Positions 5,554 through 58,087 of a DNA stretch of 58,087 nt are shown here, in pieces. Where the stretch lies: positions 1-58,087 of the forward strand of contig JAYQLI010000044.1 in assembly GCA_038143065.1 (NCBI GenBank), given 5' to 3'. The notes beneath the pieces were generated by a model, which saw nothing but the letters and a program-made list of their open reading frames with translations, did no database searches and was not told the DNA's origin. Both the position numbers and the translations under genes were made by a program. Source of the stretch: Rhodospirillales bacterium. Its GTDB lineage: Bacteria; Pseudomonadota; Alphaproteobacteria; Bin95. Within the stretch, counting starts at the first letter, position 1, and the number at the start of each line of letters is the position of its first letter.

Positions 5554-6342
5554 ATGACCGATTTGAACGGCAAAACCGCCCTCATCACCGGCTCGACCAG
5601 CGGGATCGGCCTTGCCATTGCTGAGGCCATGGCCGGGGCCGGGGCCAATATCGTGTTGAACGGCTTCGGCGATGCGGACGCGATAGAGGCCACCCGCGCC
5701 TGGCTTGCCGCCACTTATGGCGTCACCGTGGCCTATGACGGCGCGGATATGACCAAGCCCGACCAGATCGCCGCCATGATCGCCAAGGCCGAGGCCGATT
5801 TCGGATCGCTTGACATCCTGGTGAACAACGCAGGCATCCAGCATGTCGCGCCGGTCGAGGACTTCCCGCTGGAGAAATGGGACGCCATCATCGCGATCAA
5901 TATGAACTCTGCCTTTCACACCTCGCGCGCGGCTCTTCCGGGCATGAAGGTACGGGGCTTCGGGCGGATTATCAACGTGGCTTCGGCCCATGGGTTGATC
6001 GCCTCGCCCTACAAGGCGGCCTATGTCACGGCCAAGCATGGCGTTGTTGGCATGACCAAAACCATCGCTCTGGAGACGGCACAGAACGGCATCACCTGCA
6101 ACGCGATCTGCCCGGGCTACGTGAAAACGCCCCTGGTCGAGGCGCAGATCCCCAACACCGCCAAAGCGCGCGGCATCACCGAAGAGGAAGTGGTGCGGGA
6201 CGTCATGCTGGCTGGGCAGCCCACGAAGAAATTCGTTGGCCTTGACGAGGTAGGGGCCTTCGCGGTCTTCCTCGCTTCAAACGCAGGCGCGTCGATCACT
6301 GGTGCGGCCCTGCCGATCGACGGAGGCTGGACCGCACAATGA
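5554..6342 (+). CDS. bdhA: D-3-hydroxybutyrate dehydrogenase (SDR)
   Basis: TGSTSGIG, NNAGIQHVAP, SAHGL, YVTAKHG, ICPGYV.TPLV, DGGWTAQ. Confidence 0.93.
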   Translation: MTDLNGKTALITGSTSGIGLAIAEAMAGAGANIVLNGFGDADAIEATRAWLAATYGVTVAYDGADMTKPDQIAAMIAKAEADFGSLDILVNNAGIQHVAPVEDFPLEKWDAIIAINMNSAFHTSRAALPGMKVRGFGRIINVASAHGLIASPYKAAYVTAKHGVVGMTKTIALETAQNGITCNAICPGYVKTPLVEAQIPNTAKARGITEEEVVRDVMLAGQPTKKFVGLDEVGAFAVFLASNAGASITGAALPIDGGWTAQ

Positions 6343-26897: not shown

Positions 26898-27311
26898 ATG
26901 CGTTATATAAAATCAACACTTCCGACAAATGAGGAGATCGTCAAAGAAATTAAGTTTCACTGGAGCCACGGCTTCATATCTTGGTTATATTTGATTTTCT
27001 TGGGTATGTTTTTAATTGGAGTTTACTTGTTCTTAAGATCTCTTATTGAACGATATTCTACCGAGCGCGCAATCACAGAACATAGAATTATAATCAAAAC
27101 AGGCTTAATTCGGAGAAGCACAGAAGAGATACGCCTGGATAGAATCGAGGAAATAAATCTAAATCAAAGCATTTTAGGGCGTCTAATTGGCACGGGTGAA
27201 TTGCTTATCACTGGCACCGGTGGCAGTGAGCTTCACATGAAATGGCTTAGTGATCCCATTGAAGTTCAAAAGGCGATAAATGCTTACCGCATGGTTGATT
27301 TGGGCTCTTAA
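26898..27311 (+). CDS. Membrane protein with bacterial PH (bPH_2) domain
   Basis: TM segment, then AITEHRIIIKTGLIRR..EEIRL..IE.I...QSILGR..G.G. Confidence 0.8.
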   Translation: MRYIKSTLPTNEEIVKEIKFHWSHGFISWLYLIFLGMFLIGVYLFLRSLIERYSTERAITEHRIIIKTGLIRRSTEEIRLDRIEEINLNQSILGRLIGTGELLITGTGGSELHMKWLSDPIEVQKAINAYRMVDLGS

Positions 27312-27341
27312 ATTTTATAAATAGCTTGTAAGTTACGGTAT

Positions 27342-28078
27342 CTAATTCTCTGCCAGCTCTTTCGTGAAATTTGCGGCTATAATTCCGGCTGGCATAGCAA
27401 CAATTCCAATACCCAATATAGCAATAGCACTAGCCAAGAGTTTTCCAATTGCAGTAACCGGATAGGCATCGCCATATCCGACAGTAGTGAGTGTAGCCAT
27501 AGACCACCACATTGCTCTTGGAATGCTGCCAAAAGTTTCGGGCTGAGCGTCTGATTCAACTAGGTATAAAGCACTCCGCCAACAAACAGCAAAAATAAGG
27601 TGACTATTAAAGAAGCTGCTAGCTGACTGCGGGACTTATAAAAAGCCTCAATAAAGATCATCAAAGGTCTATTAGATTTGACCAATTTTGCAACTCTAAA
27701 CATACGCAGAAGTCGGATGGCACGGAAAAGCATTAAGTCTGAATAAAGTCCAGCGACTAGGCTAGGGAGTATAGCAACCAAATCTATGATAGCATAAGGT
27801 GTAAAAATATAACGCACCCTGCCTTTCAAACCTTTATATTCATTAATTGCTCCAACGAAATATAGTCTCGCGATATATTCAATACTAAAAATTATGATAA
27901 ATATCATTTCAAGGTAAGAAAATAAATTTTGCCAGTCTTTGTAGAGTGTTGGCTCTGTCTCAAGAACTAGAGTAACAATAGAAAATATAATGATAGCCAT
28001 TATTAACTTTTCAAGAAAAGTTGCCTGATGGTCGTCAGTGGACAGCAACGAAATTTGAAGATACTCACGAACAGTCAT
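27342..28078 (-). CDS. Voltage-gated-type potassium channel (6TM ion transporter), one frameshift
   Basis: S4 FRAIRLLRMFRVAK. Pore FGSIPRAMWWSMATLTTVGYGDAYP read in a shifted frame. Confidence 0.9.
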
Positions 28079-28099
28079 TATATTACCTTGTGAAATGAT

Positions 28100-30033
28100 A
28101 TGTTAAAATATTTGCTCAGACCTTTAATTTGCCTCAACAAATATAAGCTGAAGTTTGTTAAGATCTCTTGGTAACTGGGCGTATGCCCCCTAGGTTAAGA
28201 TGCGTCGCAAAACCAGCATCCGCTTCATATCTCCACCCAATTAAAATACGTTGTGTTTCGAGCATCGCAGCGCCCCAGATTCCAAAGCTAGCTCCCTGAA
28301 GAGATGAGGGCAGGTCTGTTTCAATAATACGAATGTGGTAATTTGGTGCACAAATGAGATTATCGATAACGGTTTGCAAGTGAGGGTTTTCAATGAATTG
28401 CGCAAAAACTTTGCTGCTGATTTTCTCACTTACGACAAAATCTGAGTTCGCGCCTGCTGAAGTAATATCTTTATTCTTGCCAACTAGCATTTCGGTAACC
28501 AGATGAGGAGAGGTATTTTCCGCTTTAAAAATCTCCCGCAGAACAATCATGGCCCTAATTGTTTCTATGTCTTCTGCTCCAACATCATAGCTTGCGGTAT
28601 GCGTTACGATGATAGTATCAAATTCCCAACAATCCAGCCCATGAATGGCCTGCTTATCATCAGTCTTGCCTGTTATGACTTCAATTTTCTTATTATTACG
28701 ATTTTTTAATAAAGTGGCCATCGCTTGTCCAGCGGCAGTCTCAGGCAAAACAGCTTAAGTGTTTTAAGTTCCGGTAAGTTGTTTATTATCTGATCAACCA
28801 GATATTCATGTTCTTGTGATAATCCAATTATCAAAATTTTATTGAGAAGTTCACTTGAGTTTATATTTGAGGTTAGCGTTTTTATTTGGCCCGCAGTTTT
28901 TCGCAGTTGCTTTTCTATAAGTTTTTTGTCCCCCTGAGGACGTGGTATAATCGTAGAATCATCTTCAGCAACCACTTACAAGCTTATCATCAGAAGATAA
29001 AATTAGCGATGCAGGTGGTGCTAGGTTTAGATTTCCTGATGATGTAAGAATGCCAACAACGACGCTCTCTTGGAAACTTTGCCATGCAACGTCAAACCGT
29101 TTATTCTCAAGGCCAAATGTTGTAACAGGTTCGGTAATGTAAAATTCATTGCCATCAAAGCTAAGAATTTCTTCATAAATTTCTGGAAGATTTGGTTGCT
29201 CAATAGTTTCAACAACTAATCGTGTTGGAATATTGCTAACGTCAATTGTCACCGCAGACTGGTTTGAACTTCATATTTACGAAATCACCTGCCGAAGCTT
29301 CATCTACATTTACTAAAACATCCGGAAACTTTTTATTTTGCGGCAGGTTAAGGTTTAGATAACGCTGTAACGCTAAATATATTTTTAATCGGTCAGCTTC
29401 TATGAAGGGGCCCTCATCTCCTAAAATAAGAATTTTGCGCGCGTTTAATATATTTACATTTTCAAAACTATGCTGGCTTTGCAAATCGCGACTTCTTAAA
29501 AAGAACTGCGTTGTTTTTGAATCAGAAATGCTATTTGCTGCTGTTTGTGCTAATTTCTCCGCCGGCAAAGAGGATAAAATCATAATGCGTTCTAATGACT
29601 TGCTTTCATTTGCTTTAATTAGTTCTTCAATAATTGGTATCAACCGGGATGAATAGCCAACAATCACGATATGATCAGAATAGGGAAACGGCCTCTTTCC
29701 TTGCGCAACAGCATTTACGCGCGCGTCGATGATTGCAGATAAAAGTGAAATGAGAATCGATAAAACAAATATTCCAAATAACGTAACGGCCAACATCATC
29801 AGTAAATATGATAAAGAGCCCATGCTGGCTTCAATTTCCCATGGTGTAAGTGCCCGGATCATGAAATCCCAAAACAACGCCCCAAATGTCTCGTGCGGCC
29901 CTATTTGAAATATCCAAGTAATATAAGAGGCGGTCAGCACAAAAAGGATTGATATGCCTCCCAGCCAAATAATGAGTGAATTGGCTCCTCGGCTCAAAAG
30001 TTGATTCATTTTGAATTGTATTTTCGCCAACAT
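28100..30033 (-). CDS. CASTOR/POLLUX (DMI1)-like ion channel with two RCK domains, frameshifted
   Basis: TM-pore-TM, then HIVIVGYS...IIEELIKANES, IYEEILSFDGNEFY, HLVTEML and DFVVSEKISSKVFAQFIENP. Confidence 0.75.
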
Positions 30034-30153
30034 AAGTTTGCCGCTTTCAATTTAAATTCCTTTAATTCACTCTATACTTTATTAGAAAGAAGTTGATTTG
30101 CCTATATTTGGTGTCAATTAATTTATGTTAATTATTTTAAAAAGCTAAGATAC

Positions 30154-32674
30154 ATGCTAAACGAACCAGCCCAAAATATTTCTGACCTTTTAAATTTCAC
30201 AGGAAGTTGGCGTAGCTATCAGCAATCTGTACTAGATGAGCTTGACCATTATACGGATGATAGCAAAATCCATATTATTGCAGCACCAGGTGCTGGGAAA
30301 ACAGTCCTTGGGATTGAGCTTGTAAGACGTCTTGGGCATCCAGCATTAGTTTTAACACCGCGGGTAAGTATTCAAAGGCAGTGGATTGAAAGCTGCGCTA
30401 ATTTGTTCTTGGGTGGAAATAAAAATTCTGAATATTTTTCTGCAGATCCTGACAGGCTAAGCTTGTTTTCGGTACTTACCTATCAGTCGTAAAGCGGCTT
30501 TTATCCACTATGAAAAAGGGAAAAGGAAAGGCGGCTGAGACCCCTTTACCTATCACCCTAGTGTTAGATGAATGTCACCATTTGACAGGTGCATGGGCAA
30601 ATGATGTTGTTGCCCTCCAGCAGATTTTTGATGTGCGTTGTATTGTTTCGCTGACAGCAACCCCTCCTTATGAGGTGGATGTGAAGAAATGGGAAAAGTT
30701 TCAAGAGATTTGTGGGAATGTTGATGTTGAAATCTCAGTGCCTGAATTGGTTCAGCATCAAAGCCTTTGCCCCCACCAGGACTTCATTTATGCCAGCCAC
30801 CCAAGTGCTGACGAAGATATTTTATTAACTCAGCTTGCGACGGAACGTGATAATGCTGTTGAGGAAATACTTGCACATGCAGATTTTGACTCTCTACTTG
30901 AATATAATCTCGATCTGTTTGCTAACGCGGATAATGATTTTCTTATTCAACACACACGAAGCTATATTGCTACTCTGGCATTATGTCAGTTGCGGTCCAG
31001 GGATTTGACGGAAAAGATTGAACGAGAGCATGCACATGCCCCGAAACATATGCCACAATTTACAGTCTCCCATCTTGAAACATATCTAAACTACGTTTTT
31101 TCTCAGAAGTCAGTGCCAACAACGTTACGCAATACAGTGTCGTCAATGAAGGAGATATGCATCAAGAAGGGCGTTTTAGACCCTAATGGTGTGCAACTCA
31201 TCACGCCCCGGCAATAACAAAGGTTTTAGAAACAAGCACATCAAAACTTACATCTATCCAAAATATTGTTCTTAGCGAATATCAAGTTCTTAGAGACAGC
31301 CTTAGACAACTTGTCCTACTAGATTTCATCGGCGCAGATGCCCTGCAGGAAGAAAATAATTCGGAAAGCGATGATTCTAATCTAAGTCGGCTTACGGCTG
31401 TTGCTGCATTTTATGCACTGTATCAATGTTTGAAAAAACAAACCTACCAATAGCCATGGTTTCAGGGCAATTGGCTATCATTTCGGACCACTTTGCAGAT
31501 ATTTTAATTGAAGAGGGTGTTTTAGAGCCAAGAACAACAACACCAAAAAAGACGATTGAACCAGAAGAGAAAGCTCAGTTAGAATTTGAAGCCTTTTATA
31601 TTGTCAAAGTGGACAAAAGGGATTCTGGAATCTATGGAGCCGCGATGCACTGAATGGCTCAAGAATGGCGACCTCAAAATATTAGTGGGTACAGGTAGCC
31701 TTTTAGGTGAGGGATGGGACTGCCCGTCTATTAACTCTCTTATATTAGCCTCACAAATTGGCTCATTCGTATCGTCTAATCAAATGCGTGGTCGTGCCAT
31801 CAGAAAATTTAAAAAATCATCCGAACAAGGTCTCAAATATCTGGCATTTGATTACATTAAACACAAATGATGATGTTTCAAACCGTGATTTGAATATCCT
31901 TAAAAGACGGTTTAACACCTTTGTTGGCCCATCTTATCAAGAAGATAAGATTATGAGCGGTATTTCCCGTCTTCAATTAGGTGACGGCGCGCATTTGATA
32001 GGTGAAAAAAACAATACACATGTTTTGGCGTTATCCGCAAAACGGGCGTTAACTTCTGAAAAATGGCAAAAGCAATAGCAGCAGGAACCCAATCAATTTT
32101 GGCCCAAAAAATAGATGTTGAGAGATTGCAAGCACCAAAACGTCTATTAGTAGCAAATCTGTTCAGAGGCAAAGGAGTTTTCTCAAAAATCGTAAATCCT
32201 TTCATCTTCGCAGTGCTAAAGCCGAAAGCCGACAGCCAAACGATATTGGTTCAGCGTGTGGTTAAAAATATTGTGAAAGCTTTATATGAGTGTGGTTTCA
32301 TAAGTACCAAGCCACGAAAATTTAAAATCGTGTTTTCAGACAAAAGATCAATATGCATCACTGGTGGGTTGCAGCGTGAGGTGGCGATTATCACAAACGC
32401 GATAGATGAGTGTTTTACTTTCTCAACAGATACAAGATATGCGTTAGCGTTGAAGGTTCCTTGGAGTGCAAGTTGCTATATATTTGCACCAAAGTTACTT
32501 TCTGATAACAAAAAACGGCTTGAGATATTTTTAAAATATCTAGAGCGCGTATTTGGTCCTCTTGACCCCATTTTTTCAAGGGAAAAATGGAGAAGAACTA
32601 AAGCTCAAGCTTCTTCAAGACCAGGAATTGGGAGCCCCAATAATGAGGTTAATCACGGTCGTGTTTGGTTATAG
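30154..32674 (+). CDS. SF2 DEAD/DEAH-box (ResIII-like) helicase, frameshifted
   Basis: WRSYQ, AAPGAGKT, DECH, LTATP, EGWDCPS, QMRGRAIR. Confidence 0.85.
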
Positions 32675-32726
32675 AGATGCAGGCCATATTATGAAGCTAT
32701 TATATTTTTACTGCCGCTGTGGCGTG

Positions 32727-33284
32727 TTATCTCAGGGTAAACGCACTTGAAGTAGATTGGCAGGAAATTTGGCTTAAAATATCGTTTTCAATAAGGCCCG
32801 TTATTAGAGAAGTTTTAGTATCTTTCAGATCATTAACCTGGGTTGTTATGTCTTTTTTTATGGAAAACTGGAATGAATAAGCAGTAACAGACTGGCTGTC
32901 TTTGAGTGTTTTAATCAGCGTTTCCTGAGCGCGCTTGATGCTTTCGTGTGAAGCAAAATCTAGAGTATTTCCTGTGGTTTCCGATATAGCAGCGGTCTGG
33001 TTATTTGAATTTGTTGCCTTCATCTGCTGCGATTTTCCTAATTCTGAAATTTCACCAACCCGTTTGTTCTTAACGGTTAGCTTCATGTTGGCATCACAAA
33101 CTGCATTGGCCTTATCAAATAAGGTAGCTTTAGTTGCGTCGTCAAAATCTGTTTCCAGACCGCTTAATTCCACAGTTATTACCGTCTTTGAAAAAAGTTT
33201 TAGCACCTTCTCATCTTCGCCACAACCACTTAACAGAGTCATGGTTACAAACAAAAAGGGAAAACCAAATAGCGTTTTTACCAC
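32727..33284 (-). CDS. Hypothetical lipoprotein
   Basis: Signal peptide with LLSGC lipobox. AAGGA RBS. Confidence 0.65.
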   Translation of the reverse strand: MVKTLFGFPFLFVTMTLLSGCGEDEKVLKLFSKTVITVELSGLETDFDDATKATLFDKANAVCDANMKLTVKNKRVGEISELGKSQQMKATNSNNQTAAISETTGNTLDFASHESIKRAQETLIKTLKDSQSVTAYSFQFSIKKDITTQVNDLKDTKTSLITGLIENDILSQISCQSTSSAFTLR

Positions 33285-33460
33285 ATTAACTATCCTTCTT
33301 AATTTAAAAAATATTCATCAGTTTACAGATTAAATACGCTTTTTAGACTTATTTAGTTTATTCTTTAAGAGATTTTGCTAAATTAGTGTGTAGTGTTTTG
33401 ATAATAGAAAAGCTTATAAACCGCGTCTTGTGAAACACTGTAAATATAGGAGCATAGATA

Positions 33461-34083
33461 TTGTTAAAGCTTAATCTTGCATTCTTATCCGTCATAATTT
33501 GTTTTGCTGGTCCGGCAATGGCGTTGAAAAACTTGTCATTGGACAGACTGCATTTGTAGCCTGCAAAAACGTAAACCTTATGAAGGAAGCTAATAGCTTT
33601 TCACCAGTATTATCCTCTCTTGCTTTTGGTGAACAAGTGACAATCCTAGAATTAAAAGGCGAATTTGAATTACCTGATTCTGATTTTTCTTCAAAAGTAA
33701 AACTGGAAGCACAACTGCAAATGGCTGCTGGTGATGGTGAGCCAGCAGCGGTTCAAACTGAGGACTATACCAGAGCAGCCTGGGTAAAGATAAAACAAGG
33801 TCAGTTTGTTTCGGCGGCTTGTCTTGTATCTAAAGAAAATTTTCAGAACAGACTATGGAGAAAGCTGAAAAAAGGTGGCGCAGCTCTCATCAGGCACAGC
33901 AAAGCGGAATTTCTCAGAAGAGGAAGATGGTGACATGCGCGCGATGCGGGGGCAGCTGGAAAGCGAAGGTGGCACTGCAGATTTTTGAAGATCGATAGGC
34001 TTATAACCGAAAATCAGGGGTTAACAAATTTATCAACTCTAGAGGACTTCCGTAAGTCAGGCCGACTAGGAGAGTTTAAATGA
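33461..34083 (+). CDS. Secreted SH3-like domain protein (frameshifted)
   Basis: AGGAG RBS, signal peptide, VNLMKEANSFSPVLSSLAFGEQVTIL...WVKI, AMRG, C-terminal FRKSGRLG. Stop overlaps the M48 start. Confidence 0.6.
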
Positions 34084-35038
34084 GCTTAACAAAACGTATT
34101 TTTTCACACCTGCTTTTGATGCTGCTAATCACCGGATCTTTCAGCGCCTCATGCAGAACTGAAGTCTTTACTTGGGGAGGGCTCGGGGAACAGCCTTTTA
34201 GATAATATGCTCAACAATGGTAGTGGCGGCGGCGATGAAAAATGAACTGACAGACATGTTTAGTGGCTTAGGACAAACTAGCAGTGATGAAATATCAGAT
34301 GCCGATGCAGGGTCGAGTCTAAGTTTATTTTCTGTTGTAAACGACATGGTGGAATCAAATCAAAATACAAATTTAGGTCCAGTTGGCCGATTTGTGCTTG
34401 GCCGAAATTTATCCGCCAGGGTTGTTGGAGCGTCAAATATTGTTCCTGTATTAGATCCCAGAGTGTCCTATGTTCGAAATGTTGCAGTTACGATTATGCA
34501 AAGTAGCCGATATGGTGCGAATTATGTGGAGCCAGTTTTTATCCTAATTGAGGATCCTAAATTGATAAATGCCTTTGCTGCACCTGGCGGCTTTGTATTT
34601 ATTACTACTGGAATGCTGGATTTTCTTAAAAATGAAGATGAGCTGGCATTTGTTCTTGCGCATGAAATTGCACATATTGAATTAGACCATGGTTTGAATG
34701 CTATCAAACAGAATGAGGGCGCCAAGTTATTTTCCAAGGGTACGGAGGCGATGAATATGGAGGGAGCTAATCAAATGTTTGATGGTTCCTTGATTTTGCC
34801 GAAAATGGCTATTCTGTTGAACTTGAGGCGGAAGCTGATAGACGTGGAGCCGAACTTGTCAGTGCATTAGGCTATGATGTTCAGGCAGGTATAGATGTCA
34901 TTCGGCGATTAGAAGAAATTTCAGATAGAAAACATGCTATGGGTTATCCTGAAGATAGGCTCGACTTCTAAATTCTGTGGTAAAAAACGTTAACATCTCG
35001 TCAGAAATTAAAAGGGCAAGAGAGCAAAGATATCTCTG
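34080..35038 (+). CDS. M48-family zinc metalloprotease, secreted (frameshifted)
   Basis: INAFAAPGGFVFITTG, EDELAFVLAHEIAH, EAEAD, GYD. Confidence 0.88.
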
Positions 35039-35074
35039 AAATATTTGATTAAGGTAAGTGATTAGGCGCACAAG

Positions 35075-36771
35075 ATGAGTAAAAAAACCCCTGGCGGGAC
35101 AGCAGAAAATAAAAATGAACAAGCCGCGCTCGCGGCCTTAATCGAGCGGCAAAATCAGCAGCTGCAAAATCTAGAGAAAATATTATCCCCGGAAAATCAG
35201 GAACAGCAACAGCGGCGATTTGTCAGGGCCCTGATTAGGGGCATGTCGGTTTTTGCGATCGCAATTTCTGGTGCTATCGGCAGTTGGGAACTTGGTGTGT
35301 TTTTGAAGGAAAGTTGGGATATAAGGCAATTAGCGCATGATTATGCCAATGTAGGTGTCCAACTTTATTATCAAGAGAATAATCCTGCTGTAGCAAAAAA
35401 ATTTCTTGAGAAAGCAATAGATTTACAGCCAGATAACTCTGATTTCATGTATCCAGATGCCTATATTGACGGTATGGCGTCGGTCCGGGGATTATTCAAT
35501 CTGGACAGACCTTATAATGCTGAAGAACTGAACAATGCTTATGAGGCTCTGGCGAAGTCTGTTTTACTAGAGCAGCAACAACCGGCAAGTCCAGAACCAT
35601 ATATCCTAAGAGGCCAAATCTATGCCGCATTGAAGGACAATGATAGAGCGCAAAGGACGCTTGAAAGAGCTGTAGCTCTAGATCCAGAAAATGATTTCGC
35701 CCATATGCGCCTCGGCGTTGTTTCCTATAATAAGGGGATACCTCATCGGCACTGTCCTATCTGGACAAAGCTGGAACCTTAAACCCTCAATCAAAATGGG
35801 TTTATTTATGGAAGGAGTAATAGCTAGCGAGCAAAAATGAAACAGAAAGAGCCACAGGCCTGTTTTCACAGGCGCTAGATATCGATCCCCGATTTGACTT
35901 GGCTTATTATAATCTTGATGGACTTATTTGGGCGCTGACACAAAAGATTATAGAAGGCAGAGACTGCTTTCAGAAAGGCATTATCTCTAAACCCTGAATA
36001 TAAAGAGGCTTTTTTATGGATTGGGATGGTTTATGGTTACCAGCGCCAATATGAGATCGCTAGTGAATATTTGTCCAAAGCGCTCTTGCTCGATAATCAA
36101 TTTTTGACAGCATTTAAATGGCGGGGAATTGTACATGATGAGCTTGTGGAATACGAAAAGGCTCTGGATGATTTTTTCATCTGCCATTGCAATTGACCGG
36201 GCAACGCCCAAATCTTTATCCGGCGAGCGCGCGTCAATATTAAAACCAAAAATTACGAAGATGGGCTTTCTGACTTGTTGCTTGCTCGAAATTTTGATCC
36301 AGAAAACCCCCGAATTGGGCTGTATCTTGGCAATCTTTATTTTGATATCGAGGAATATGCCCTTAGCCTAGATGCAGTTAATGAAGCATTAACCCTTCGT
36401 CCAGCTTATAGTGATGCCCTGCGTCTGCGTGCCCAAATCCATACAAAGGCAGAAAATTATGAACAAGAAGCTCTGGAGGATTTGAGACTGCTCCTTAAAA
36501 GTACAAAAATATCGGCAAGAACGTATGTTTTTTCAAAGGGGCCAAATATTAGGCCTTATGAATAGAAACAAAGAAGCTTTTGAAAAATTTTGAGACTGCC
36601 CGTTCAATTAACCCTAATTTTGCTGATGCCTGGCTTGAAGAAGCAAAAGTGAAGCTATTATTAGCGAAACTATCTGACGCGCGCCTAGCGTTCTCAGAAT
36701 ATCTAAAATTACGGCCAAACGAGTCCAACATCAAAGAATTAAAAAAAATTTGGTTATTGAATGGCGAATAA
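35075..36771 (+). CDS. Membrane-anchored multi-TPR protein (frameshifted)
   Basis: One TM helix, then repeated TPR units (AVALDPENDFAHMRLG, DPRFDLAYYN, LNPEYKEA, LRPAYSDA, INPNFADAW). Confidence 0.8.
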
Positions 36772-44887: not shown

Positions 44888-45013
44888 AACCTATTATTAA
44901 TTTGCCTCTAAAAGGGGGCGCAAAATACAGAACTTTCAAGCCAATTCCAGCAAGGCCAAACCGAGTTGTTGTTGTTTCGAGAGTAAATACGCCTGATTGT
45001 ATTTAAATTAAAT

Positions 45014-46196
45014 TCAACCATTGCTGGGCAATTTCAGATGGTCGATCTGTTGCAAACAAGGCAATAAGGTCACTTTTAGCGGATAAAAAAAAATGGTCGG
45101 GTAAGAAAGTTTGTCCAGGTTCGCGTTGTTGTTCCATGCGGCGGTGTTGTCTTTTTTATCAGTTGCCTTAGAACGGATATTACGCAGCCAAATCTCTAAT
45201 TTTTTTTCACCGCTATTGATTATCTGAATTTGAATTGACAACTCAAATTAACATTGGATGGCAAAATATCTGAATTTATTTTTGTTGAAAAAATTGTAGG
45301 GCAGTCATTTTGAATGATAGACAGATCTAGCATCTCTGTGACACGAGCTGATTTCTGCAGCATGGTTTGTTCAAAAAAAATTGCAGTATTTGCTTGTATC
45401 CAGTTACCATCTCTCCTGCTTTTTTTAATTAGGCGACTTAAGGCAATATGTTGTCCATCTTCTTCAAGAAGGCGCCATTTTTTCCAATCTGAGTAAAGTG
45501 AATAAAAATACCCGCAATCAAGGTTGCAGAAAAAAAAAAAGCATTAATATAGCAACCAGAAGAGCTGGTACAATTAACAAGCGTTTTTTTTATCGTTATT
45601 GGTGCGGTAACAGGAGCCCGGGGTTTCACTTAGCTCCAGACCCATGGCGAAAAGCACACTTACCTCAGAGAAGTGGCTGCATGCAATAATTTTATCTGCA
45701 ACAAAATGATTGAAAGCTAGTTCCGAGATATTGTCGGGATGCATCACAACGAATACCTTACCACCCTGCTGCTGATAGTTTATCAGCATATTTTCAGATA
45801 AATGTGTTTTTTTCTCAATATGGTCAACTCTGCAATATCCAGATTTGAAGCACGCGGCCTGTTGTAAAAATCAGAATATCATGATTTAGATTGCGGCATC
45901 TAATACTGTGAGCTGGTCATAGGATGATGCCAAATGGCCAATAGCGATACCCAATTGCCAGCTTTGGCCTGTGTTATGGGCGCAGACAAATCTGTTCTGT
46001 AAGAATTATCGCCAATAATTTCTGAATGATACCAGTAGGGCGCCGGATAAAAGCGTCATAAGCCGCACTGATAGGGAAGTGCCTGAAAACTATTTTTCAG
46101 ACATAAAACCGAATTTATATTTGGTGTCTCCTTTGTAATCGATACCAATTCAACAGGTATATCTGTTGTGGGAATAACTATGCAAAACTTATTCAC
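45014..46196 (-). CDS. Membrane-anchored Lon-type (S16-like) Ser-Lys protease domain protein without ATPase, frameshifted
   Basis: Stitched translation ...YRTDLSAPIT-GQSWQLGIAIGHLA...IFTTG.V...LDI..VDHIEKK..., then hydrophobic LLIVPALLVAILMLFFF. GTG start overlaps the upstream stop. Confidence 0.55.
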
Positions 46197-46735
46197 TTGA
46201 TAAAAAACTCTGCTGTCACATCCGCAAAGGCATTTTTAACTGGATGGTTAGGTCGAGTAACACCTGCACCAAACCATTTGAGGGTTTGCAGCTCTATCAT
46301 GATAACCTTTGCTATCTTTCGCAAACAGGTAATTGAAAGGCCGAGAGACACCCTCATGAAAGGAGATAACAAGATATGCACTACCATCATTTTTTGAGGA
46401 CATATGTAATTTTAGATCAAAATGCTCTCCTATCCGGCTCGGTAATTTCATCTGGAGCAGCGGCAACTAATAATGGTTGTGTCCCGTTGCCAGAATGCAA
46501 AAGAATGGTGCGAAAATCTTCCTGCAATTTTTGGCTAGCATTGACAATTTGCCACCAATCCTTTGTTTGTGCGCCGCCTCGATTTTCTGCTAGAGCTACT
46601 AATTGGGAGAAGCTTATTCCAAAGTTGAGGTTGTTTCTATTTTCTTTGTTAGCAAGACTTTTCGGAGTATATCTCTACATTCCATCGTTACAAACAAAGC
46701 TTCAACGGGTCTGCTATTTGCTCGTTATCGTTCAT
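46193..46735 (-). CDS. Small hypothetical protein (helical N-half, LVAAA linker, beta-rich C-half), frameshifted
   Basis: ISFSQLVALAE...LQEDFRTILL...QPLLVAAAPDEITE.IGEHFDLKLHMSSKNDGSAYLVISF...AFADVTAEFFIK. Overlaps both neighbours. Confidence 0.55.
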
Positions 46736-48430
46736 TTGAAATGCCTTTATATGTTGGCTTCGCCATGTAATAGGTCAAATTGTTTTTGCTAAATACTGCC
46801 TTATCTTGTCGCACCTGTGAGGCAAGTACTGCGTTGTCTGGAAAATGACTGCGCAACTTGGCGCACAATTTTCTTAAATGTTTGTGAAGCTCAATCTGTG
46901 TTTCGGCACCATTAACCAAGTCATTATGCCAGCGCAAGCGTGCCTCATCCGTAAATATTCTTGTCTGGTTTAACAAGCCCAAATCGTTTGAATTTACGTC
47001 CAGCCCATAAAATCCCTCTTGATTAGCTTCAATGTTTTTTCTTCGGAAACCAAAAGCATGCCGGCAATTTGCGCTGCTCTGCGATCGATATCTACAGGTT
47101 CTTTTATTTTGCTGGATAATGCTGATATCTGGTCGTGAACATCACCTTTCTCCTGTTCTGATATCAGTTCCATCATCAGTGCAATAGCCTCGACCCTTTT
47201 ATCTTCCCAAAGGCGTAGGCATCCAACCTTTGCTAATTCATGGGCCTGTTCTCCTGCGGCCTCCAGCGCTTTTATTGTGTCGCTGTAAATGTTGTCAGAG
47301 AGTACAGTTTTAGCATTAGGACTTCAGTGCCATTGTCTTTTAACTTCCGGCTGACTTCCACCAATGTAGATTGCACTGGACTGAATACATGCGTGCGCAA
47401 TAACGAGAGACACAAATCTTCACTTTCTTTATCTGATATACAAAATAACTCTAAGAATTTTAGTTCCTTTTTAGTTATAAATTTAACCGTTTGTGATGAT
47501 TCTTCGTTTAATATATTTAGCCTGTCGTTAAGAGATAATTGGTTATCAATTAAGTCTGCATAATTGTTTTCACTTCTGTAAATTCCAATAAATCAATATC
47601 AGAATTATAAACAATTTGATTAAGGCTAGCCATAGGCTGAAAGCCAGAATGGCTAGCCACACGCAAGGCCATCGATATCGAATCCATGAATGAACACATG
47701 AACTGAATAGTTTGAACCGCAGCGCTTTGTCGGCACTTTTTTCTTTCCAGAAAGACAGAATAAGTTCGTCTGTAATATCGGTATAGTAAGATTGATTTCG
47801 GTTTGTGTGGTCAGATAAATATTTACTCAGCAGCTTTGCCTTTGCACGCAAGGCTGCTGCAGGCAAATGATTTTGTAAATATTGGTACATGGATGCAGAT
47901 AATTCATTGGTCATTTTATCTAGATCTGTTTTGTCCAGCCCTTTGTCCCGAGCGTGCGCCATGCTCGAAAATAAAAACTCATGGCCAATTGTTTCAAAGA
48001 TGAATTCTATTATGGCTTCCAGAGTTGATATTCTTGTGAAATGCAGGGGTAAATTTTGACGTATTATTCGAATAGGAAATAATAACTTGCCGGTCATTGA
48101 AGGTGACATCATCGAGCAAATTTGCTCACGCAACACAGTTTTTAAAAATCTGGATGAAGATTGCCCATCTTGTGAAAACAGAACTGTTAGCGGAAGATTC
48201 AGACGCGCTAAAAGACCAATGAGATGCATTGCTTCATAGAAACTTGGCCCATAGCCAAACGATGCCACAGATGTGATTAACTTGGTTTGTGTCTTATCTG
48301 AATAACGCCGATGACCAAACTCCATCTGTTGCATTACATACTTGGGTTAGGTGATTAATCAACGTTTGACTAGGTGGCTCTAACATAAACTCTGGCCAGC
48401 CCTTGAGCATTGTAACAACTTCTATAGGCA
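46725..48430 (-). CDS. Large cytoplasmic helical hypothetical protein, possibly a divergent sigma-factor-like regulator (frameshifted)
   Basis: ORFs 47570-48334, 46994-47176 and 46725-46982 join across frames. RFKLFSSCVHSWIRY resembles sigma70 region 2.3. Confidence 0.5.
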
Positions 48431-48569
48431 CAGTCTTTTACCTTAGCTAATGGATTGATTGATATTAGACCTATCATACCTGGTCATTCAAGTGGCTAAT
48501 TAGATAGGAATTTGATTTGTCAAAACTTTCCTCCCAAGCGCTTTTGAAAATTGTGGCTATTCATTGTCA

Positions 48570-57961: not shown

Positions 57962-58087
57962 TTTTAAAAACATTATTTTTATTATTTTTTTCATTATACT
58001 TTGGTTTGCCCTACCAGTTGAAGCGAAGGGCAAATAATTTTGTAACTGCCCCTATTATTGTTGATTTTGTCCTCAGAGTGTTATTTT

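Follow-up and report, generated by a model that had tools for sequence, protein, structure and literature searches.

A candidate transmembrane proteolytic relay with an ATPase-less Lon-fold protease, concealed by assembly errors in an alphaproteobacterial contig

The subject of this analysis is a 58,087-nt stretch of DNA from a Rhodospirillales bacterium (hereafter called the window; contig C44 of a 52-contig, 4.63-Mb genome) and three co-directional genes on its minus strand, arranged in the order A-B-C between positions 48477 and 44894. We lean toward the view that these genes form an intact operon encoding a transmembrane proteolytic relay, wherein an outer cue would cause protein C, a membrane-anchored protease of the Lon fold, to cut protein B and thereby free protein A. 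The module is a probable transmembrane variant of protease-relay signaling that is unannotated and widespread in marine bacteria, and the literature searched, which leaves subscription journals and ~1.7 million PMC articles outside its range, contains no description of it. That an ATPase-less Lon-fold protease can carry out regulated proteolysis was shown only recently, for the CalpL protein linked to CRISPR (clustered regularly interspaced short palindromic repeats).

Results

The fragmented frames of the window are assembly errors in intact genes

The first-pass annotation of the window had described the module as genes shattered in the list of open reading frames (ORFs), and a frame listing of the window agrees: the minus-strand frames from ~48480 to 44890 are fragmented into pieces of 25 to 258 codons. 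Pfam searches with 16 window pieces returned nothing credible, the four matches obtained being sub-threshold and attributable to chance. The largest piece, on the scale of 258 amino acids, led to a 577-amino-acid protein and thence to a metagenome locus (L002) that is colinear with window positions 58087 to 36750 over 21.3 kb at 90.5% identity and that carries three intact open frames. Correction of the indels by alignment, as the annotation had proposed, in this way recovered three intact genes, and the intact L002 proteins stand in for the window proteins in all protein analyses presented below.

The base-level alignment of the window with L002 comprises 19366 matches, 1830 mismatches, and 175 indel events. 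Relative to L002, genes A, B, and C contain 12, 6, and 20 indels, respectively, of which 37 have lengths not divisible by three. Such a density of lesions (38 indels within 3.6 kb), together with the sparseness of long ORFs throughout window positions 26 to 58 kb, is what one would expect if A, B, and C were decaying pseudogenes of a dead island, without function in this genome. The substitutions tell against this explanation. Mismatches in 21 L002 ORFs fall at codon positions 1, 2, and 3 in numbers of 386, 260, and 1008, and because of this strong third-position bias, the divergence is judged to have occurred under purifying selection. The indels are therefore incompatible with old pseudogene lesions; had the genes decayed neutrally to approximately one indel for every 10 substitutions, the codon bias would have been lost.

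Independent sequence data point in the same direction. Near-identical Logan contigs of independent origin (three DNA metagenome runs and one RNA library) lack the indels and concur with each other against the window at sites 45497, 45499, 45530 (5 bases), 45620, 46250, 46280, 46436, 46953, 47949, 47968, 48046, and 48120, and at 43 further sites. One Logan contig of 2.3 kb, which spans positions 46218 to 48477, shows more gaps (27) than substitutions (24) when compared with the window. Among the 120 single-base indels, 50 have no identical neighboring base and only 25 adjoin same-base runs of at least three, and this scarcity near same-base runs suggests that noisy reads were the source. We conclude that the window indels in A, B, and C are assembly errors and that the genes are intact in nature, which leaves the pseudogene explanation scarcely credible. 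The fragmented genes of the contig are an assembly artifact, and their annotation as pseudogenes is unwarranted. Long ORFs (at least 150 amino acids) cover a fraction of 0.84 of the 2.86-Mb contig of the assembly but fractions of only 0.36 to 0.63 on six of the smaller contigs sampled; many of the small contigs are thus probably subject to indel noise, which would create false pseudogenes.

Protein C is modeled as a membrane-anchored protein with a Lon-fold Ser-Lys protease domain

The AlphaFold2 (AF2) model of C, which has a predicted local distance difference test (pLDDT) score of 91.4, consists of an N-terminal Lon-fold domain, one transmembrane helix, a stalk of three helices, and an immunoglobulin (Ig)-like outer domain. 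When the model was used as a Foldseek query, the list of matches was filled by protease-type domains of Lon, RadA, and ComM (E 7e-6 to 2.5e-4, probability 1.00). A fold comparison by VIA-align against 48161 chains gave Z scores of 12.4 to 14.1 for residues 1 to 186/196 of C with RadA, Lon, LonC, and ComM, at a root-mean-square deviation (rmsd) of ~3.1 to 3.5 Å over 155 to 171 residues. Lower in this comparison stand BrxL (Z 11.8), CalpL (Z 10.4, rmsd 2.6 Å over 126 residues, with 21% identity, the maximum in the list), and the VP4 proteases of birnaviruses (Z 7.2-8.8). A profile of the C family likewise matched Lon proteases among PDB sequences (4ypm, 7fid, 1z0e, 4fwd, 7p6u, and others; E 7e-5 to 6e-4), with CalpL at E 0.5. 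Weak PADLOC matches to CRISPR-Lon (E 0.011) and SAVED_LON (E 0.02) cover residues 76 to 138, which include the Ser region.

Family databases recognize little of this. The L002 protein has no Pfam match (none to Lon_C at E <= 0.1) and no NCBIfam match; Lon_C matched none of 85 members of the family at E <= 0.01 and none of 53 further relatives at E <= 1e-4, and no AAA+, PDZ, or other relevant Pfam domain was found among the 85. The check that had been suggested for the Lon_C family therefore divides, wherein the fold match holds by Foldseek and VIA and the match to the Pfam model does not. The family is nevertheless large for one that has no Pfam model: a full HMMER scan of 1.84 billion representatives retrieved 741 cluster representatives at E <= 1e-3, 476 at E <= 1e-10, and 11 at E <= 1e-30, and most of the 741 match residues ~1 to 160 only.

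The conserved residues of the family include a putative catalytic Ser-Lys dyad. Residues C32, Y46, F49, G55, G77, S79, H88, G114, K131, and C316 are invariant in 85 of 85 relatives, and the consensus of this 85-sequence alignment reads ...PIxxGxSWQLG...WxTGEVDxDLxVxPVxHxxxKL. In the HMMER alignments to 4ypm and 7fid, Lys131 is matched with the second K of the GG-x-KEK motif of Lon. Among the 81 C sequences derived from the loci described below, S79 is present in 80, K131 in 79, and H88 in 80, the exceptions all being gaps. The first-pass annotation had read these motifs directly from the window, and they do lie where it placed them on the minus strand: GQSWQLGIAIGHLA, followed by DILIFTTGRV and VDHIEKK. 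Its proposal that the Ser and Lys be conserved among relatives is borne out by the invariance of both.

The remainder of C suggests how the protease domain would be oriented in the membrane. The transmembrane helix is preceded by a cluster of Lys and Arg residues (DKKRS-LILPAILAAILMLFSATLI in the L002 sequence), and the outer part (residues 281-424) resembles the Ig-like domains of MSP, filamin, and pilus chaperones (VIA Z 6-7). Two Cys residues of the outer domain are widely retained among the 81 sequences (C295 in 74, with four gaps and three substitutions; C316 in 76, with five gaps), and such a pair would fit an extracytoplasmic location. As judged from the model, C is strongly supported as a single-pass membrane protein whose catalytic domain faces the cytoplasm and whose outer part is a small domain of binding type, Ig-like and presumably disulfide-bearing, and its N-terminal domain is equally well supported as a predicted ATP-independent protease of the Lon fold with a Ser79/Lys131 dyad. 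The corresponding claim of the annotation, an ATPase-less and membrane-anchored Ser-Lys protease with an extracytoplasmic domain, agrees with the model, the Foldseek, VIA, and profile comparisons, and the conserved dyad.

In relatives of C, the outer part is replaced by other domains. Variant fusions among the 53 further relatives include an nSTAND1 NTPase, a formylglycine-generating enzyme (FGE)-sulfatase domain, and DUF4189, each in one relative, and therefore the protease head appears to be combined with different sensors. These three fusions are proteins P0139 (1515 amino acids), P0093, and P0154; another genome (G270) has a 1215-amino-acid open frame bearing the same Lon-like domain.

The most conserved feature of protein B resembles a cleavage site of CalpL

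Protein B, of ~183 amino acids, has an Ala-rich motif between its N-terminal and C-terminal parts. In an alignment of 60 sequences, A93, A94, and R102 are its only invariant positions, and the family consensus is ...PxxAAASSGxxxxRxGxxF.... The motif reads LLVAAAS in L002 and LLVAAAP in the window (encoded at 46453-46473 on the minus strand), the pattern AA[AG][ST] is carried by 68 of 71 B homologues, and a hot spot of indels and insertions lies directly after it.

Comparable sites have been mapped in CalpT, the substrate of CalpL. For CCaCalpL, CalpT is described as being cut within LAAA, between A204 and A205, such that the new ...LAA C terminus of the cut protein is a degron for ClpXP (bioRxiv 10.1101/2024.05.08.593097). 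For SsCalpL, an earlier preprint gives a dyad of S152 and K193, a cut of CalpT after A194 (A194|S), and an S1 pocket that limits P1 to Ala or Gly (bioRxiv 10.1101/2021.12.06.471393). By analogy, the B motif resembles what a CalpL-like enzyme would cut, and the predicted N-terminal fragment in L002 would end in ...LLVAA. The annotation had singled out this linker as the likely target, and its emphasis appears well placed, given that the motif is the most conserved feature of the family and resembles the mapped CalpL cut sites.

Similarity searches otherwise say little about B. Pfam gave two unrelated single-member matches among 60 homologues, with none to MazF or DUF2080, and neither PDB sequences (no credible match) nor PADLOC (no match) was informative. 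A protein atlas places B in unnamed proteobacterial clusters only, and the C-terminal half is weakly like beta-sandwich domains in that atlas (template-modeling scores of 0.3-0.4). From its sequence and from the predicted complex described next, B is a probable adaptor and substrate.

A predicted complex places protein B between protein A and the protease

A three-chain prediction was made with A, B (the scored partner), and residues 1 to 200 of C, each entered as an alignment. The interface score (ipSAE) was 0.75, 0.75, and 0.76, compared with 0.45 for the best of three controls, at least 84% of contacts were in common among runs, and the partner pLDDT was at least 78. The mark set for the tool is reached by 58 of 80 solved complexes and by 2 of 110 mismatched pairs, counts that hold only roughly for this prediction because its three chains and custom alignments differ from the tool's calibration. 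Replacement of B lowered the ipSAE to 0.00 twice. Replacement of A gave 0.45 with 38 confident contacts, so some B-C signal persists.

In the predicted complex, residues 8 to 84 of B contact A, and the lowest-error pairs join residues 40 to 44, 68, 98 to 101, 210 to 217, and 267 to 271 of A with residues 12 to 25 and 45 to 49 of B. Residues of B among 112 to 167 and residues 19 to 67 of C are also in the confident interface. The model therefore supports a role for B as a two-part adaptor that bridges A and the protease, with the Ala motif between its halves. Multimer predictions on pairs of the proteins had been suggested by the annotation; the three-chain model places the middle protein between the other two.

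The same arrangement could be read differently, in that B might merely present A to the protease and that the cleavage or degradation of A itself switches A off or on. The placement of B between A and C is consistent with this possibility, and an acidic linker of low confidence in A (residues 279-312) could be cut. However, A has no invariant small-residue motif, and the sole Ala-rich invariant motif of the triad is that of B, which matches known CalpL sites. We regard A as an improbable substrate and prefer B in this role.

Protein A is a soluble protein without a recognized fold relative, and a sigma-factor identity is very improbable

Protein A is predicted with confidence as a soluble and largely helical protein (AF2 pLDDT 88.3, predicted template-modeling score 0.83) with one small sheet (residues 125-146). 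An N-terminal domain (~20-280) is followed by the acidic linker and a C-terminal helical domain. Residues L201, L205, D237, W244, R362, R378, R500, G502, and F564 are invariant, and the family is acidic, with a median isoelectric point (pI) of 5.5. Sequence retrieval of A is difficult, wherein a word-index protein search gave one match at a longer setting and two with a 68-sequence profile, and the 258-amino-acid piece used as a query did not find A in the 40 nearest genomes.

The first-pass annotation had likened A to sigma70 on the basis of three stretches, FKLFSSCVHSWIR, ASLNQ, and ITKKELKFLEL, all of which are indeed located in this upstream gene. If A were a divergent factor of the sigma-70 type that an anti-sigma-like B holds back and that, once freed, transcribes the envelope cluster described below, the logic would parallel that of CalpL-CalpT-CalpS. 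Sigma factors are acidic, and the acidity of A is weak evidence in the same direction. A cluster carrying Sigma70_r2 is also found among the neighbors of A in the protein atlas, all of which score below 0.9, although its cosine of 0.88 and 93 shared features are at chance level.

Searches for such a relationship gave it no support. None of 68 homologues of A has a Pfam match at E <= 0.01, and a comparison by hhalign of the A profile with five sigma factors of the same genome gave a probability of 0.09% and E 0.57. The A profile has no match at E <= 10 among PDB sequences, and neither the PDB nor BFVD yielded a Foldseek match at E <= 1e-3. The best VIA score is Z 5.5, with designed and generic helical proteins. 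Both fold comparisons used the whole 577-amino-acid model and might miss a small embedded domain. Moreover, A is three times the size of a sigma factor of the extracytoplasmic function (ECF) group. The proposed sigma70-like identity thus finds no backing in these comparisons, and we consider it very improbable. As it stands, A has a confident model that matches none of the solved structures searched, and its function, for want of a structural relative found, would be new biology.

Corrected gene layout

The positions of the genes and of the features assigned to their products are listed in Table 1. The annotation had described three overlapping genes between 45014 and 48430. Their shared strand and direction stand, and a genuine overlap is found for B and C only, which share 4 bases; A and B are separated by 11 bases in L002. 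The boundaries require adjustment at both ends, wherein the module extends ~120 bases past 45014, a position at which the apparent stop is a frameshift artifact, and the alignment to L002 suggests that it may begin 47 bases upstream of 48430.

Table 1. Genes and protein features of the module, in window coordinates
Feature	Position	Strand	Basis	Remarks
Gene A	46747..48477	minus	alignment to intact L002:10001-11734	~577 aa, 12 indels
Gene B	46193..46735	minus	alignment to intact L002	~183 aa, 6 indels
Gene C	44894..46196	minus	alignment to intact L002	~427 aa, 20 indels
VAAAP codons of B	46453..46467	minus	direct sequence reading	proposed scissile motif
Lon-fold domain of C	45625..46196	minus	VIA and profile vs PDB Lon	residues ~1-190
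Ser79 codon of C	45961..45963	minus	invariance in relatives	proposed nucleophile, within GQSWQLG
Lys131 codon of C	45808..45810	minus	alignment to Lon	proposed general base, second K of VDHIEKK
Transmembrane helix of C	45504..45574	minus	model helix, mapped via indel table	residues 207-228 (approximate)
Ig-like outer domain of C	44919..45330	minus	VIA and Cys conservation	residues 286-420 (approximate)

The triad is conserved as a unit in marine Alphaproteobacteria

A scan of one genome per species yielded 80 loci, or 81 with L002. The 80 loci belong mostly to marine Alphaproteobacteria (SAR116/Puniceispirillaceae, Rhodospirillales, Nisaea, Thalassobaculum, Curvivirga, and Aestuariispira), with a few from Gammaproteobacteria. 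Cultivable carriers include Nisaea denitrificans DSM 18348, Thalassobaculum fulvum, Aestuariispira insulae, and Curvivirga aplysinae. In 77 of the 81 loci, B-C is immediately preceded by a homologue of A, and the four loci without A (L004, L014, L024, and L026) end too near the C gene. A homologue of B is detected between A and C in 71 of the 81 (phmmer, E <= 1e-3), and the rest keep an A-C gap of similar size. Most loci have 4-base overlaps of start and stop codons. Co-occurrence of the three genes, which the annotation had named as a check, therefore extends to nearly all loci with room for the triad. The pairwise distances of A, B, and C are correlated over 48 loci (r 0.89-0.94), and none of 500 permutations gave values as high. 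The genome of the window has one copy of the C family. In five cultured species, the homologues of A, B, and C are all annotated "hypothetical protein," and NCBIfam has no match for A, B, C, or 14 of their neighbors.

Sequences from a metatranscriptomic seawater library cover 46516 to 46838 and 47838 to 48062, which are parts of A and the A-B junction, at 95 to 99% likeness. These contigs are a hint that an operon closely related to this one is transcribed, but DNA carry-over is possible, and we do not count them as proof of transcription.

The module is autonomous but usually embedded in one envelope cluster

Genes flanking the triad in L002 recur in 45 to 57 of the 81 loci. They encode two SLT transglycosylases, membrane proteins of 132 and 184 amino acids, and secreted proteins of 134, 298, and 185 amino acids. 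The flanking set lies at 36750 to 58087 in the window and at 5933 to 17951 in L002, and a CsgG/LpoB-like lipoprotein accompanies it in fewer loci. The 132-amino-acid neighbor has a single transmembrane segment with an invariant Glu inside, and the 184-amino-acid neighbor has several transmembrane segments and an invariant G-L-P motif. The two proteins look like ExbD-like and ExbB/TolQ-like stator components, and there is a weak match to ZorA (E 0.012), but we do not claim this assignment; profiles built from 36 and 38 homologues of the two neighbors found no ExbB, TolQ, MotA, ExbD, or TolR among PDB sequences.

Other loci have different surroundings. In Nisaea, the triad lies amid housekeeping genes and the envelope flanks are missing. 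At the locus from a metagenome-assembled genome of Candidatus Thiodiazotropha taylori (L032, 255-14769), it lies amid five FGE-sulfatase genes, two caspase (Peptidase_C14) genes, one DUF4384 gene, and one PEGA-domain gene, a context that recalls conflict or sensor systems, unlike the envelope cluster of the SAR116 type. Because the flanking set is absent from the Nisaea and Thiodiazotropha loci, the module is autonomous but usually embedded in one envelope cluster. Control of this cluster by the module, as the annotation had envisioned, consequently has genomic context on its side where the flanks are kept and lacks it elsewhere.

The window itself changes in composition along its length. The first 19 kb have a GC content of 0.53 to 0.62 and clean, long ORFs for housekeeping metabolism; among the products are enzymes of homogentisate catabolism, TctABC, and three sulfatases together with an FGE enzyme. 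Between 19.7 and 26 kb lie fragments of a recombinase, a DNA polymerase of family A, and the Arm-DNA-binding domain of an integrase. From ~26 kb, the GC content is ~0.40 and long ORFs are sparse, and positions 26898 to 35782 hold fragments of a bPH_2 protein, an ion-transport channel with an RCK-like piece, a Peptidase_M48 protein, and a tetratricopeptide repeat (TPR) protein. Two origins could account for this break, the integration of an island in a minority strain or the chimeric joining of sequence from two organisms; the contamination estimate for the genome is 5.5%.

Several of these observations would suit a defensive role, wherein envelope damage or an invader would be sensed by C, and the resulting cut in B would free an A that is toxic or arrests growth. 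The distribution is patchy, with the C family in 12 of 300 other genomes in an even sample of the class and A in none of 40 close relatives, and the module of the window lies in a low-GC region that begins after integrase-like and recombinase-like genes. The nSTAND1 NTPase fusion in one of the 53 further relatives, the caspase, DUF4384, and FGE-sulfatase genes around the Thiodiazotropha locus, and the fact that the closest characterized analogue, CalpLTS, is a defense system are in keeping with such a role. However, PADLOC is sub-significant for the Lon part and finds nothing for B, and A has no toxin or nuclease domain recognizable by Pfam, Foldseek, or VIA. The genes that flank the module in 45 to 57 loci do not have the look of defense genes, and the Nisaea loci lie among housekeeping genes. 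An anti-phage or conflict device is, on balance, unlikely.

Discussion

The mechanism that we favor is a relay across the membrane. At rest, B would keep A at the membrane, with the N-terminal part of B holding the N-terminal domain of A and the C-terminal part of B contacting the Lon domain of C. When the outer domain of C senses an extracytoplasmic cue, the protease would be turned on, possibly via oligomerization as in CalpL, and C would then cut B at the Ala-Ala motif between its two parts (AA|(A/S); V-A-A|A-S). A would leave the membrane bound to the N-terminal fragment of B. This fragment, ending in ...LVAA, would resemble an ssrA-like C-degron, such that proteases of the ClpXP type could strip it from A and liberate the latter. 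As the output, A would probably act on the flanking envelope system with its two SLT transglycosylases, which is the most likely target.

Several considerations weigh against this proposal. Cleavage, binding, and the signal are all predicted, and the argument for catalysis by C is the conserved Ser/Lys dyad alone; the top structural matches of C include RadA and ComM, which are non-proteolytic Lon folds, and the family fails the Pfam Lon_C model (0 of 85). In the predicted complex, the motif residues of B (92-96) are outside the confident contacts, and the contacts listed for C (19-67) exclude Ser79. The correlated distances of A, B, and C may merely reflect common genome ancestry, and the link to the envelope cluster is missing in the Nisaea and Thiodiazotropha loci. 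B bears no likeness to MazF or DUF2080, so that the analogy with CalpT would be one of function and does not imply homology.

If the proposal is true, the module passes a signal from outside to the cytoplasm without CRISPR or a nucleotide messenger. It also suggests that many bacteria share a Ser-Lys dyad, a single Ala-specific cut, and possibly an Ala-Ala degron. More tentatively, and as a possibility to which we give less credence than to the relay itself, the family could represent a widespread and previously undescribed class of transmembrane signaling system with a swappable outer sensor, a cytoplasmic Lon-fold protease, and a dedicated two-part adaptor that is cut once, wherein A, of a fold without a solved relative, governs a conserved and likewise undescribed envelope machine composed of two SLT enzymes, small transmembrane proteins, and lipoproteins. 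Such a class would parallel CalpLTS across the membrane, independently of CRISPR and with an output of a new type.

Comparison with known systems

The canonical Lon proteases LonA, LonB, and LonC constitute family S16 of MEROPS. Protein C shares with them the fold of the proteolytic domain (Z 12.4-13.6 with Lon from T. onnurineus, B. subtilis, E. coli, A. fulgidus, and M. taiwanensis, and with MtaLonC) and a putative Ser-Lys dyad in the arrangement G-x-S ... TG-E-V ... K. It differs in that the family falls below the Pfam Lon_C threshold and in that, unlike LonA and LonB, it has no AAA+ module, the protease domain beginning at residue 1 and the transmembrane helix following at 207 to 228. We infer that C probably cuts at a specific site and does not act processively.

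Membrane anchorage of a Lon domain without an ATPase is also found in YlbL/DdcP of Bacillus subtilis, a checkpoint-recovery protease that is described as having an N-terminal transmembrane segment, an extracellular Lon domain, and a PDZ domain, and as acting on a specific small regulatory substrate (PMC6051672). The Lon domain of C, in contrast, is predicted to be cytoplasmic and precedes the transmembrane helix, there is no PDZ match, and the protease has two dedicated partner genes.

In the RseA/DegS/RseP and RsiW pathways, an envelope signal crosses the membrane by proteolysis of an anti-sigma tether, and ClpXP may finish degradation of the anti-sigma factor at an Ala-Ala C terminus. The module differs from these in combining the sensor and protease in a single Lon-fold protein; its tether, B, is soluble and has no zf-HC2 domain or transmembrane segment, and the released protein is no recognizable sigma factor.

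The VP4 enzymes of birnaviruses, for which a broader site consensus is also known, resemble C in their Lon-like fold (Z 7.2-8.8) and are ATP-independent, site-specific Ser-Lys proteases, as C is predicted to be. They differ as enzymes that process their own viral polyprotein, with no sensor, membrane anchor, or partner genes. An internal site of VP4 from infectious pancreatic necrosis virus is given as VQRA|KGSN, with Ala at P1 (PMC13067793).

The closest parallel is with CalpL-CalpT-CalpS. Both systems join an ATPase-less Lon-fold Ser-Lys protease to a sensor domain, and both have three genes and a small middle protein with a conserved Ala-rich site. After cleavage of CalpT, as described in the preprint, the N-terminal fragment binds CalpS and the C-terminal fragment remains on CalpL (bioRxiv 10.1101/2024.05.08.593097); the halves of B are similarly predicted to hold A and C. 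The differences are nonetheless substantial. C has no SAVED or CARF domain, the PADLOC matches being limited to the Lon part, and its sensor is instead a transmembrane helix with an Ig-like domain; the module has no cyclic-nucleotide input. B matches neither the MazF-like N-terminal domain nor the DUF2080 C-terminal domain of CalpT. The output, A, has 577 amino acids and no ECF-like sigma signal by Pfam, hhalign, or Foldseek. No cas family is among the Pfam matches of the neighbors scanned, which are those of the window, L002, L003, L032, and L051. The module is not a member of the CalpLTS group but most likely works like one.

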